Assembly (NCBI GenBank): GCA_044892525.1
Contig: CM097885.1
Coordinates: forward strand, 9,550,001-9,614,000
Direction: 5' to 3'
DNA: 64,000 nt
Origin: Schmidtea polychroa
Lineage: Eukaryota
The notes below the pieces were generated by a model that worked only from the letters and a program-made list of their open reading frames with translations, had not been told where the DNA came from and searched no databases. How positions within the stretch are numbered: the stretch's first letter is position 1; each line of letters begins with the position of its first letter. Made by a program: the position numbers and the translations under genes. This document shows positions 42,411 through 64,000 of this stretch, one piece after another.

Positions 42411-45400
42411 TGTTGGGCTGAGTCGAAGGGTAGTTGGGAAATTAGGGCAAACTTAACTAAAATAAAATAAAAAATAAAACCAAATAAATTGACAAATAAA
42501 ATAGAATAAAACATAAGAAAAACAATAATTAGAAAATAAGAATTAAAACAAAAAATATAAAGATGAGAAAAATTAAAATAGGACAATAGAATGACGGAAA
42601 ACAACGTAAAATATAGTAAATAATAAGAAAATTAAGGAAAATAAATAAAAACATAATTTTAATAAAGAAAGTAAGAAGAAATAACTCAAAAACAAGGAAA
42701 ATAAATTAAATTAATAAAATTAAGCGGTACTCAATTCTAATTGGTCCGCGCAAACAAAAAATTAATATATAAGCAGGCATTAAAAACATAACAATTACTG
42801 TTAATCAAACCACCTCAATAGGTAAGTGAAATTTAAATAACAAACTACTGTTAATCAAACCACCTCAATAGGTAAATCTATTCTACGACAGTACAGAAAT
42901 CCAGCAACTAACGCACGATAACTCACGAGGACAATTCCAAGATTCAAGAGATTTTTACAGAACTAGACGATATTCGAGCATTAACTGATTCGACACAGTA
43001 CCCTTTTCGACTCAGCCCATACTTATATCAATCATTCGGTAAGGATTTTTGATTTCTTATTTTGAATTTTTAAGTAATGCGTATAGTCTAATAATATTTT
43101 TAATTTAAAGAATGGTTTTTCTTTTCGTTTGATTTTCGAATGCTTTATTGAAATTAATGATTTGGCTAATAATAAATGATCTGCTTTCTAGGAATTATTG
43201 ATTTTTCTTTGATGAATTATTTTTATGAGTTATTATTATGTTAATTAAATTTTTGAGGAACGTGGCGTTGAGATACTCTATGTCATGGTGTGAGGTGCCT
43301 TCGGGAGCTCCACCGGTGGACATAGAGTATTTCAATCACGCAGCTAGATTGGGCCGAAATGTGGGGGCTTCTTCACGGGTCCAATCGCTGAAGGTGCGAC
43401 TAAAATCTATAGGTAAATTGTGGCAGAAAATTGATAGTCATATAGTGATTGAAAACAAAGATATGTAATAAATGAATCGGAGAATTTTGATGTATTCGCG
43501 CAGTGATTGAGGGCGTCACACCATCGTCTCCAGATATCGTTTCTACTAAGCCAAATTTTCTCTATCAGTGAGGTAATCGTTCAGACCTTAGTGAGGCTAT
43601 GTGTGACATATCTTCGATGTTCACCCTTTTCACCCAGAATCTGTTCCGACCCATTTTTGCCTATGACCTTTTGAACTGTTATTCCGTTCATCTAAAAGTT
43701 TTCTTAGAGACATAGTAGTAAGGAAGTTCAAAATAGATTGCTTCAGACAAGTATTAGGATTACTCGAAATGACTGCTTGTAAATCAATGGTAGAACCATG
43801 TAAAATGATTTAGTCCAAATAGTTATTCAGAATTGCATAAAACGAGTTTGTTCCAAATAAAAGTTTAAATTACATAAAATGATTTGCTATAATAAATTTT
43901 TAGAATTTTATATAAAAGAATTTACATACAATTAATTATCATAATTACATAAACTATTGGCATCAAATAATTTAAAAATGAAAAATGCAACCAATTCGAG
44001 CCAAGAAAAATATATTTCTTCAATTTAGCCGATGATCTTGTTAATTAAATATAAAATTCCAGTATTTCATGGGGTTGGCAATCCAGCAGGGATAGGTAGA
44101 AAATCTCCAGAACTTAGAGAATAGATCGATAAACTGTGTTTGAGGAATTAAAGACGAAAAATCCACCCCTGGAGCAAACCATATCCAACGTCTGCGATAT
44201 AGAGAATCATAATTTTTCCAATAATTCGGTGAGAATTAGTAGATCATCATCATATGCAGGAGAATTGTGAGCAATTACGCGGTAGATAAAAATCCGAGAA
44301 AATGCCATCATGCAAACATTTAACACCTACATTTGTAGCGACTAGTATAAATAAGTGTGTGAAAGCGCACCTTACATGCGTCACCCAGTTGCAGACATAC
44401 CCAGTAGCCAAGTACAGTGGGCAAGGTCACACCCGCCTCTACTCATGAAAAATCGGACCGGACGTATCAGATGGAATTTCCATTAGCTAATTAAATCACC
44501 GACAGGCATCAGATTTCATCGCTCCAGATTGATAGTCAACCACCGGGCTGACGTTTACTTATCTACCTAGCAGGAATGGTCGGCTGCTAGCTCACATTGA
44601 TACCGTGCTCAGTTATCATAACGACAATATCTTTTGATGCTAAACCCAATCATAATTATGATTATTTTTTCTTTATTATCTTAGCATGAATGATACAGAA
44701 ACTATTTCATTTTTGACCTAATTATCATTAGTATTAATATTAAATATTATTAAACAAGTATTATTTAAACAAGATAAAACAAATATGTGAGTAATTAGAG
44801 AGAATGAATAAATAATCGAAAAATTAAATAACCTTCCGTTTATCATGTAGGAACTAATTAAAAGACATTATGGGCCCCCTTTTCCGTAGATATTTACTCG
44901 ACCCCAGTATATGATACACTCATCAAAATCACTCGTTCGGGGGGAGAAGTCAACAATTTAACTCGATTCTCGGTAAACGTGAAATAATGACTTCAAGCGG
45001 ATTAAATAAATAATCATTTTCATCGACCTAGAATTTCTCTCACTAATGGTAATATCTCCCTTTCCTTGTGCGAAATCTGGTTTGATCGATTTATCTTCTT
45101 ATAATTAAAGACCCAAAAGGTATGAGGATCCATCGTGCAGTAGAACTTGTCTTGACTGATAAACCCATATTTTTGTCTATGATCAGTAAAGTATGAATGT
45201 GGTCAGATGGTGACACTCCCGTTGATTTAATTATTTTCATTTTTCATTTTTTCTCCACAGTCACTCAAAATGTTGCCAAATTCCAAGACCGTTCTTCGCC
45301 CTTGTTTTTCTTGTTCCGACAAGAATTCAATTATCAAAGAGCTCCAGGCCCAAATCGGAAAGCACAAAAGGAGAATAGATGAGTTAGGGGGGACATGGTT

Positions 45401-46586
45401 TAGTCCCACCCAGATGAAGGAGGTTCAGAAGAAGCTGCACCGAAGCGAGCACTGTAGAGACGCGTTAATCTCCGAGAGTCGGGCGCAGAGGAGCCTAATA
45501 AAAGAGCAGGCGGAGGCGCTGCACAAATTATACGTCCAGGCAGCAACTACCAGGAAGATCGCGAAGATCCCAATTAATGAAGCCGGAAATCTTTTCCCTG
45601 CGCATCATAATATCTCTGGTGGGTCTTCTTCTCCAGTCGGGAAGTCCTGCCATGGGTGCGTAGAGACCGAGCTCTCACCTAAAGAACCGGAAATCATCTT
45701 TACCGGAACTAGTAAAGTGCTACCTGCGATGGCATCTACCTCTGCAACCCCCCCGACCAATCAGGCGGCATCGAAGCCAAAGCGTCGGCAATTATCGAGA
45801 GCCGAGCGCAAAAAGAAACAGCGGGAACGCGTAACCGCCAAACAGGACCAGAAACCGACGGATCATCCGGTCGAAGTCATCACCCCTCCGGCAGCAATCG
45901 AGCTGGCATCAGTGATCTCTGGGCGAATCATCTCCGCCGCTGGTGTCACCTGGGAGGAAAATGCCTCTGAATTTTTCGATTTGGAAGATCTATTGGCAGA
46001 CTCGGAGTGGGAGAAATGAGAACTTCTCCGTAAAAGGTTTTCGTTCTCTGAAATTACCCGAACATTGTCTGATAACATTTTTACCTTTGTCTCTTTTCCT
46101 GTTGTCGTGAATTATATTGTATAAGTGTTAGATATATTTGTGTGATAATCTTAATAATAAACCATTTGTGTCTGCATACGTTTTTTTTGTGTGTTCATCT
46201 TAGGACAGTTGAGTTGAAATTGGTGAATGGTATTGAGAGTCACAAAATTTTGAGGAGCATTAGTCAGTTGGCAACTCAGCTAGAAACATTGCGATGGGGC
46301 GACGGAATGAGTAGACGTAAGTCCTTCTATCGGCAGTCAGGGTTGGGAAGTCGAGGCCTCAGTAAGGAGTAGTCCGAAGGAGCTGGCTCACCTGCTTACT
46401 GGCGTCTCGCCGGCATAGCACAGTTCCAACGTGAAGCAATTCACGGGTGCTATGTTGGAGTGTAGGTTATGTACGGGTCCCGCTCGGCGATGACCAAATA
46501 AATGACGGGCGAAATCGAGGTGGGCATTCATCCTCTAGACTAAAGCTGCACTAGAAAGGGGTCATCCGAGTAGTGTACCCGCAACA
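42411..46586 (+). repeat. Putative 5' LTR (about 4.2 kb)
   Basis: TGTTG...CAACA ends. The right end lies 7 nt before the PBS. AATAAA at about 46156. The left boundary is inferred because the 3' LTR is outside the window. Confidence 0.6.
45270..46019 (+). CDS. 249-aa ORF within the putative LTR; unknown, possibly regulatory, protein
   Basis: Intact GC-richer ORF after a polypyrimidine-CAG acceptor. CxxC, coiled coil, basic KPKRRQLSRAERKKKQRER, acidic/aromatic C-terminus. Confidence 0.7.
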   Translation: MLPNSKTVLRPCFSCSDKNSIIKELQAQIGKHKRRIDELGGTWFSPTQMKEVQKKLHRSEHCRDALISESRAQRSLIKEQAEALHKLYVQAATTRKIAKIPINEAGNLFPAHHNISGGSSSPVGKSCHGCVETELSPKEPEIIFTGTSKVLPAMASTSATPPTNQAASKPKRRQLSRAERKKKQRERVTAKQDQKPTDHPVEVITPPAAIELASVISGRIISAAGVTWEENASEFFDLEDLLADSEWEK

Positions 46587-46593
46587 TAATTTT

Positions 46594-63592: not shown

Positions 63593-63753
63593 AAAGGAAT
63601 ATGACTGTATATAACTGTAAAAAGTAAGTATGTCTTATGTATATAACAGTACTATATCTTTATATAAGCGCGGTATCAATATTATACAATAACGGGAATC
63701 ATAAAAATAAAATTAAATTTAAATAAGAGTTGAAAAGTGTATATAAATTAAGA

Positions 63754-64000
63754 ATGGATCAAGGAAATAACGAAATGAACCACAACACAGTAACCGAAGA
63801 ATTATGGAAGCAACAATGTGCCGTATTAGCACAATTAGTGTCCAATTTGCAAGAACAAGGATTGACGATGCACAGAAACCTAATCGAGAGTATGAATAGA
63901 GGATTTAGTTATTTGAAGATAATTGAAGACCAGAGGTTAAAAATCGAACAAATGCAAAGAGAAATGGAGAGGATAACCCAATATAGCCGTAGACAGGAAA
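63754..64000 (+). CDS. Partial accessory ORF downstream of the polyprotein (open at the window end)
   Basis: MDQGNNEMNHNTVTEELWKQQCAVLAQLVSNLQEQGLTMHRNLIESMNRGFSYLKIIEDQRLKIEQMQREMERITQYSRRQE, no stop. TATATAA lies just upstream. Confidence 0.6.
   Translation, partial: MDQGNNEMNHNTVTEELWKQQCAVLAQLVSNLQEQGLTMHRNLIESMNRGFSYLKIIEDQRLKIEQMQREMERITQYSRRQE

Follow-up and report, generated by a model that had tools for sequence, protein, structure and literature searches.

We found that a 64,000-nucleotide stretch of the Schmidtea polychroa genome (GCA_044892525.1, contig CM097885.1, positions 9,550,001 to 9,614,000, forward strand; hereafter the window) carries from position 42411 onward a giant retroelement. 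It is probably a young, though defective, member of an autonomous Burro-type Ty3/Gypsy family, in which the genes follow GAG-ENV-POL order, Env is of class III (gB-type) and the cargo would dampen host responses. Its identity as a Burro-type element is almost certain, as likened to Burro1-4 by their published description. Several features of Ty3/Gypsy (Metaviridae) elements were present: the order protease (PR), reverse transcriptase (RT), RNase H (RH) and integrase (IN), long terminal repeats (LTRs), a tRNA primer site and a short target-site duplication (TSD). The studied family is called A, and its relatives in the same genome are the diverged subfamily A2, with the same inventory and order of open reading frames (ORFs), family B and the compact family C.

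Both ends of the element were located by end comparison after the adjacent DNA had been fetched. The sequence-only reading of the window had placed the start of a giant retroelement at 42411 and had expected a 3' LTR past the window end, flanked by ATAAT or TAAT. The start is exact, at the TG...CA terminus of the 5' LTR, and the element measures 30,415 bp in total; its 3' end lies at G000:C1:9622825, 8,825 bases beyond the window end (G000, host genome searched; C1, C2 and C4, its contigs). The expected 3' LTR was found in the adjoining stretch L001, of which base 1 is window position 63001. Each LTR is 4,176 bp, and the two differ by 6 substitutions and no gaps. The 4-bp TAAT matches the expected TSD and the 5-bp ATAAT fails; among 16 sampled copies with both termini located, the duplication was of 4 bp in 12 and of 5 bp in none. 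The primer-binding site (PBS), which begins 7 nt past the LTR, is the complement of the 3' terminus of host tRNA-Pro(TGG). Spacers of 4-7 nt separate the LTR from the PBS, exceeding the usual length. A tRNA-Pro(TGG) gene array with 475-bp spacing was observed at G000:C1:130.90-130.95 Mb (L135), and a 22-nt tRNA-Pro pattern gave 2,307 genome-wide matches at no more than 1 mismatch. As to the polypurine tract, no purine run of 9 or more was detected within 350 nt upstream of the 3' LTR, and a conserved 45-nt motif with hairpin potential precedes the 3' LTR in A, A2 and B (L001 5590-5649; L112; L063). Judged from these sequences, plus-strand priming may be non-standard. The candidate poly(A) signal AATAAA was located 399-442 nt ahead of the LTR end in every copy tallied.

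Table 1. Features of the element, in window coordinates or, where so marked, in coordinates of the adjoining stretch L001
Feature	Position	Strand	Basis or remark
Left TSD, TAAT	42407..42410	+	right copy directly after 3' LTR
5' LTR, 4,176 bp, TG...CA	42411..46586	+	pairwise comparison with 3' LTR
LTR ORF, 249 aa, coiled coil then basic stretch	45270..46019	+	no family; copy in each LTR
Candidate poly(A) signal AATAAA	46156..46161	+	about 430 nt upstream of LTR end; putative
Candidate splice donor GTAAGT	46317..46322	+	near LTR end; conserved in sampled LTRs
PBS, tRNA-Pro(TGG)	46594..46612	+	complementarity to host tRNA-Pro genes plus CCA
Stand-alone RING ORF, 161 aa	46922..47407	+	helical N-terminal part, C-terminal IAP-type RING
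Leader tandem repeat, 6 copies of 72-74 bp	47966..48399	+	
Gag, Retrotrans_gag, three CCHC knuckles	49766..51364	+	Pfam; in-frame stop ends Gag in window copy
"Ubl1" conserved domain	51758..51982	+	ubiquitin fold unsupported
Ubl2, weak ubiquitin-fold support	52277..52534	+	sub-threshold PI3K_rbd, UN_NPL4, UCH_UBL1
Ubl3, ubiquitin/SUMO-like	53225..53434	+	Pfam ubiquitin E 0.0036
Bcl-2-like domain	53981..54457	+	BH2-like GGW kept, BH1 degenerate; about 45 aa before Env signal peptide
Class III (gB / chuvirus-like) Env: signal, Cys-rich ectodomain, transmembrane segment	54569..56357	+	Pfam, hydropathy
Aspartic protease (DTG) plus PR-RT linker	56946..57560	+	linker termed dUTPase-like in literature
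RT (YIDD at 58215) and RNase H	57894..58946	+	
Integrase (H2C2, core, GPY)	59268..60300	+	frame change in zinc-binding part, window copy
Two ankyrin modules	60407..62272	+	60407-61345 and 61454-62272
Second type-I membrane protein, polyprotein C-terminal end	62591..63592	+	hydropathy
3' ORF, 119 aa	63754..64000 and on (L001 754-1113)	+	passes window end
Intronless TRAF gene, 459 aa	L001 1199-2578	+	RING, zinc-finger region, coiled coil, MATH
Coiled-coil ORF	L001 2782-3777	+	
Coiled-coil ORF	L001 3956-4713	+	split by frame change in window copy
Small signal-plus-transmembrane protein, 189 aa	L001 4755-5324	+	
3' LTR, then TAAT	L001 5650-9825	+	LTR comparison

The window copy is defective. An in-frame stop follows Gag, and frame changes interrupt Env, the zinc domain of the integrase and a 3' coiled-coil ORF. 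These breaks are private to this copy, the frame being open elsewhere in 9/9 copies at the Gag stop, 10/10 in Env, 10/10 in the integrase and 19/20 in the coiled-coil ORF; programmed read-through at the Gag stop and programmed frameshifts were rejected on the same counts. The family polyprotein frame is 4,732 codons from stop to stop in many members, and 62 of 150 scored Bcl-2-like matches lie in a single frame of at least 4,700 aa. Junction patterns counted in the host genome gave 651 LTR-PBS and 631 internal-LTR matches, which include the diverged subfamily A2 (about 81% identical), and 0 for the controls, indicating a family of about 640 copies. Twenty copies were sampled from matches holding both the TRAF and the Bcl-2-like domain, and polyprotein pieces were taken from 10. 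The Kimura two-parameter distance between paired LTRs was 0-0.007 across the 20 copies, and no more than 0.0031 in 19 of them.

All seven 3' and LTR ORFs tested were present, and in order, in 20/20 copies. The ratio of nonsynonymous to synonymous differences (pN/pS), pooled pairwise against the window copy, was 0.00-0.21 for 20 of 21 segments: 0.21 for the LTR ORF (17/20 copies), 0.16 for both the RING and the Bcl-2-like domain, 0.03 for Ubl1-2, 0.04 and 0.00 for Env and 0.09-0.18 for the 3' ORFs, with 0.48 for the small membrane ORF. The accessory ORFs tested are thus all under purifying selection, and from their order and low pN/pS it follows that the cargo is a selected part of a young, active family; it is very probably functional for the element. 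In the LTR ORF and RING ORF pS was 0.43-0.56, 3-4 times that of most of the interior (20 copies), and LTR length ranged from 3.7 to 4.2 kb among copies, a pattern suggestive of recombination in the LTR region or of its fast turnover. Tandem arrays sharing an LTR were also observed, at G000:C4:46.24-46.29 Mb (L013, L033) and similar places, with three LTR-PBS joints about 26 kb apart.

Along the element the Pfam matches fall in the order Gag, Monjiviricetes-type fusion glycoprotein, protease, RT, RNase H, integrase and ankyrins, with the RING in a separate upstream ORF. The sequence-only reading had listed an LTR ORF, an IAP-type RING, three ubiquitin-like (Ubl) domains, a Bcl-2-like domain, Env, duplicated ankyrin modules, a second membrane protein and a further 3' ORF. 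The LTR ORF was found, with its 249 aa, in both LTRs, and matches the LTR ORF of sister family B (hhalign 92.6% over 29 columns). The RING was recognized as zf-C3HC4_3 (Pfam E 2e-11), with cIAP2, cIAP1, livin and XIAP as top matches in PDB, and has homologues in A2 and B. Within the studied family neither a BIR nor a MATH domain inside the polyprotein was detected (window, L001 and loci L003-L066). Among the three Ubl-like domains, the assignment was weakly supported for Ubl3 and for Ubl2, the family B counterpart of Ubl2 matching OTU1_UBXL (E 0.0014), and was unsupported for Ubl1, which gave no ubiquitin-fold Pfam match and an hhalign probability to Ubl3 of only 3.5%. Ubl1-2 gave no match in PDB. 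In family C, Rad60-SLD was matched upstream of Bcl-2 (E 0.0057).

The Bcl-2-like domain was supported indirectly. Searched with a 5-sequence profile of this domain, PDB gave Bcl-xL as the top match (E 0.005), and the homologue at the same position in the distant family C matches Pfam Bcl-2 (E 3e-5); the BH2-like GGW sits about 45-50 residues ahead of the Env signal peptide in all three families (A, B, C). Two single-sequence fold models were poor (mean pLDDT 42 and 48) and gave no Foldseek match at E of 0.001 or below. For the first model, Bcl-xL/Bcl-2 chains took most of the top Foldseek ranks at E of at least 0.3, and VIA-align returned generic helical hairpins only. The Ubl3-Bcl-2 stretch had no match among 1.84 billion representatives.

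Env, placed between Gag and the protease, was identified by Monjiviricetes_fusion (PF24664; E 1e-25 and 2.6e-44) and had no match among the longer database proteins. Its transmembrane (TM) segment was found by hydropathy; its signal peptide is below the hydropathy threshold and was called from the sequence. The linker between PR and RT holds a conserved 87-aa region, in which no dUTPase match was obtained in Pfam or PDB. The two ankyrin modules are homologous (22.5% identity over 222 aa, E 2.5e-12), as a duplication would have it, and the single module of family B matches both. A motif recurring at several domain borders gave 6 matches in four frames against about 1.5 expected, the pattern being drawn from the same sequence; it fits cleavage between polyprotein parts.

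The second membrane protein likewise showed signal-like and TM segments by hydropathy (62591-62647 and 63380-63451), separated by a Cys-containing beta domain. The same signal-domain-TM layout ends the polyprotein in families B and C, and the terminal domain of family C matches fn3 at E 0.009-0.012, below the cut-off. Shuffled sequences scored as high as the terminal proteins in 0/2000 cases for A-B and 4/2000 for A-C, and the hhalign probabilities were low (A-B 13%, A-C 1%). The FN3-like domains had no PDB match, and a structure search of the model of this protein returned nothing. The further 3' ORF continues beyond the window as expected, to a length of 119 aa. For the TRAF gene that follows, the genome search gave at least 92 full-length matches of 91-100% identity, 88 of the 92 without a stop, and the database search gave 2 matches.

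Family B, with an RT 86% identical, carries MATH inside the polyprotein (two MATH domains), one ankyrin module, a TRAF ORF and a full BIR-RING IAP ORF. Family C is composed of the SUMO-like domain, Bcl-2, Env, Pol and the terminal signal-domain-TM protein; in its fetched stretches, ankyrin, TRAF and RING queries from the studied family found no match. An RT phylogeny had been proposed in the sequence-only reading. A quick tree was built from 5 element rows plus 40 out of 120 database hits, 45 rows in all; it joined A, A2 and B at SH-aLRT 100, and these with C and six database proteins at 99. One of the six also has env and pol in frame. A database protein, P0014, with a class III env and pol in one frame and an RT 56% identical, belongs to a clade adjoining Burro.

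We then considered how the accessory ORFs might be expressed. Of 20 accessory ORFs, 11 have a YAG no more than 6 nt from their first ATG; for ATGs in other parts of the elements the share is 18-21%. The tally for the terminal 700 nt of the sampled LTRs gave 18 GTAAGT sites. Because of this YAG excess together with the conserved GTAAGT donor, expression of the accessory ORFs by splicing is rather likely. Contigs of four runs, taken as RNA by guess, were placed on L001, where X6 covered 28 of 30 bins and X5 19; there was no GT..AG among 10 joints in these contigs, which bears neither way on splicing or expression.

In the mechanism that we favour, genomic RNA would give one polyprotein threaded through the endoplasmic reticulum membrane twice, via two signal-TM pairs. 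Gag, the Ubls and the Bcl-2-like domain would be cytosolic, Env luminal, PR-RT-IN and the ankyrins cytosolic again, and the second glycoprotein luminal, and signal peptidase and the element protease would cut the polyprotein into parts. Bcl-2 proteins normally have a tail anchor; here the Env signal peptide may remain on the Bcl-2-like domain as a membrane anchor. The RING, TRAF, coiled-coil, small membrane and LTR ORFs would be expressed from spliced or sub-genomic RNAs. The Bcl-2-like, IAP-RING, TRAF and ankyrin products, which by kinship point to death and innate-signalling pathways, would keep innate signalling and the death of the producing cell in check, and enveloped particles would carry the element between cells. 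We slightly favour control of host death or immunity as the main role of the cargo. A wider joint reading, in which Burro elements would be two-glycoprotein, splicing-regulated endogenous viruses trading genes with the host, and the terminal signal-FN3-like-TM protein a candidate attachment partner of the gB-type fusogen, is put forward as speculative.

Several points weigh against the favoured explanation. The ubiquitin fold of Ubl1 is unsupported, and the Bcl-2-like domain itself has no Pfam match and no clear NWGR motif and may be unable to bind BH3 peptides. The 20-copy sample is biased to complete copies, and the pN/pS pairs share the branch of the window copy and are not independent. The p-values for acceptor enrichment (6e-4; 9e-6 for first or second ATG) are overstated, the 20 ORFs counted being homologues from three related lineages. 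The comparison with Burro1-4 was by published description. For S. mediterranea, the passages cited from PMC8532177 speak on both sides: in favour, BURRO1 is silenced by SMEDWI-2, its RNA being up on smedwi-2 RNA interference (RNAi); against, RNAi of BURRO1 or RT inhibitors failed to relieve the smedwi-2 phenotype.

The accessory ORFs might be separate nested insertions or unselected captured fragments, as the separate frames of the 3' ORFs and the pS of 0.43-0.56 in the LTR/RING region, more diverged than the interior, could suggest. The homologues in A2 and B stand in the same order, and the only direct repeat found was one of 14 nt in the 3' region, the tested leader pieces having none; this reading was ruled out by the ordered ORFs in 20/20 copies and by pN/pS far below 1, and its probability is close to nil. 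It is a separate matter whether the cargo serves the particle cycle of the element rather than host control. The Ubls would then be cleavable spacers or folding aids, the RING and TRAF ligases would ubiquitinate Gag or Env for budding and trafficking, the ankyrins would form a scaffold, and the second membrane protein would be the attachment partner of the fusogen. Such a role agrees with the retention of the second membrane protein in compact family C, where ankyrin, TRAF and RING queries were unmatched in the fetched stretches, with the constraint on Ubl1-2 (pN/pS 0.03), equal to that on RT, and with a RING ORF that lacks a BIR. We nevertheless consider it rather unlikely: Bcl-2-like, IAP and TRAF proteins derive from a single host pathway, and the full BIR-RING IAP and two MATH domains of family B are not obviously needed for assembly.

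The range over which the element moves bears on the last step of the favoured mechanism. Chances are about even that it moves only within the animal or the cell, with Env serving exchange between soma and stem or germ cells or a non-fusion role. Neither our data nor the cited passages show an extracellular particle, and the single polyprotein fixes Env 1:1 with Gag and Pol; in retroviruses Env is not so fixed. Env is, however, among the most constrained regions (0.04, 0.00) and keeps its signal, cysteines and TM, which shows function, not range.

The kinship of the element TRAF with host genes was analysed in a MATH tree of 41 rows (7 element, 33 host and 1 outside protein; L073 was dropped for its split frame). 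The element domains grouped with 11 of 12 long-frame host TRAFs (support 100/98), apart from a short-frame cluster, indicating kinship without direction; the element TRAF and the host intronless TRAFs are 22-31% identical over the aligned length. From this grouping it follows that the intronless class may be Burro-delivered and, if so, part of the reported planarian TRAF/MATH expansion, given as 121 MATH domains in the cited part of PMC6109357, may be element transcripts. Among the top 150 MATH matches, 94 lie in Burro-type frames and 56 outside, a split made by eye from frame length and span, with two of the 94 confirmed by fetching. The proposal that the planarian TRAF expansion is just Burro was rejected on the 56 matches outside, many of them clustered on C2; a real host TRAF/MATH expansion also exists. 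Around non-Burro MATH matches, 12 fetched 10-kb stretches showed no neighbouring Burro cargo ORFs, and several had LTR fragments. A term search of PMC7586133, as far as its text was covered, gave no 'transpos', 'retro' or 'Burro'. TRAF, IAP and Bcl-2 counts or RNAi targets from planarian transcriptomes can be element-derived.

Other genes of these classes were observed in the same genome. Clusters of short-frame, probably intron-split host TRAF genes lie at C2 1-5 Mb and 105-124 Mb, and seven near-identical Bcl-2-family matches at C4 89.9-90.8 Mb. Small Bcl-2-family ORFs were found at L121 4705-5160 and L122 4788-5135, where the neighbouring gene is a protein-primed polymerase or the neighbours are a packaging ATPase and an integrase. 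Bcl-2 genes are also carried by Maverick-like elements of this genome; similar matches occur in many places, many of them having one internal TAG. Elsewhere in the window, positions 5803-14828 form a perfect 2,432-nt inverted repeat (arms 5803-8234 and 12397-14828), between the arms of which (8576-11202) lie a broken protein-primed DNA polymerase B and an endonuclease VII remnant, marking a Maverick/Polinton-derived fold-back. A 5.7-kb non-coding near-palindrome at about 25996-31737, with nested inverted repeats and ATT microsatellites, shares the repeated TGACCTTG motif with this fold-back.

Burro elements have been described before. In the cited part of PMC6431247 (Arkhipova & Yushenova 2019), which refers to Jurka 2007 and Grohme et al. 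2018 for Burro1-4/GYPSM1 of Schmidtea mediterranea, Burro/GYPSM1 exceeds 30 kb and has a 4,873-aa ORF with Gag, three knuckles, MATH, Ubi2/SUMO-like, BCL2, env, dUTPase-like, ankyrin and BIR. Its env stands in frame between BCL2 and PR and matches mononegavirus fusion proteins, a Burro-like element of Dugesia (Girardia) tigrina carries MATH in a separate upstream ORF, and integrated proviruses were proposed to meddle with apoptosis and ubiquitination. The sequence-only reading had held that the full inventory with env might be undescribed, and had named published Burro annotations of this architecture, env included, as what would remove the novelty. Since PMC6431247 already gives Burro with Bcl-2, in-frame env, ankyrin, BIR and MATH, that is the case. 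Giant retroelements that bear env together with apoptosis and ubiquitin cargo, the headline here, were published in 2019 and are no discovery. The view of a complex endogenous retrovirus thus stands as to one provirus-like element with selected cargo of host-modulation type and no nested insertions, and falls as to its novelty.

Our element resembles Burro1-4/GYPSM1 in exceeding 30 kb with multi-kb LTRs (30,415 bp and 4,176 bp), in one giant ORF (4,732 codons against the published 4,873 and 5,140 aa) and in Gag with three CCHC knuckles, a SUMO-like domain (weak), a Bcl-2-like domain (indirect), in-frame Env, Pol and ankyrin. It differs from Burro1/GYPSM1, as there described, in that the studied family has no MATH in the polyprotein and no BIR, and its ankyrin module is doubled. 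With the D. tigrina element it shares a MATH in a separate ORF; that ORF is upstream in D. tigrina as cited, whereas here a whole RING-to-MATH TRAF lies downstream. The terminal signal-FN3-like-TM protein, the LTR ORF, the small membrane ORF and the splicing signals go unmentioned in the section 7 text of PMC6431247. Family B fits Burro1, and the studied element is a sister and not Burro1 itself.

As to other GAG-ENV-POL elements, six of HSV/gB type, Smed_errantivirus_1-6, were reported in S. mediterranea (PMC13524379). They share with our element a class III env before pol in Schmidtea, and between the ectodomain of no. 5 and the window Env about 102 of 187 ungapped positions are identical, as counted by eye. 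In the parts cited, that survey gives no LTR or primer site for its six Schmidtea elements, and 'Burro', 'ankyrin' and 'accessory' do not occur in its main text; PMC11410931, in the part cited, merely names Burro.

Complex retroviruses and foamy-like fish endogenous retroviruses likewise carry accessory ORFs at the 3' end and in the LTR, the nef/bel-type ORFs of complex retroviruses overlapping the LTR. A candidate donor near the 5' end and acceptor-like sites ahead of accessory ORFs are a further likeness to complex retroviruses. The element differs from Retroviridae in its Ty3/Gypsy Pol (RT before IN, GPY), class III and not class I Env and single polyprotein, and is not a member of that family. 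Among host proteins, the best PDB matches of the cargo are TRAF1/2/3-like, cIAP/XIAP RING and Bcl-xL-like proteins, from which the element differs by a RING without BIRs and a Bcl-2-like domain degenerate at BH1.

In the literature searched, no text was found on the terminal type-I membrane protein of A, B and C, on a whole downstream TRAF gene, or on splice-like signals of accessory ORFs and the kinship between element and host TRAFs; Grohme 2018 and Jurka 2007 may cover part of these. To the published picture of Burro the present analysis adds selection on the accessory ORFs, the whole TRAF gene, the second membrane protein, the LTR ORF and candidate splice sites. With such selection acting across a young family of some 640 copies, the published 'tinkerer' idea merits testing.

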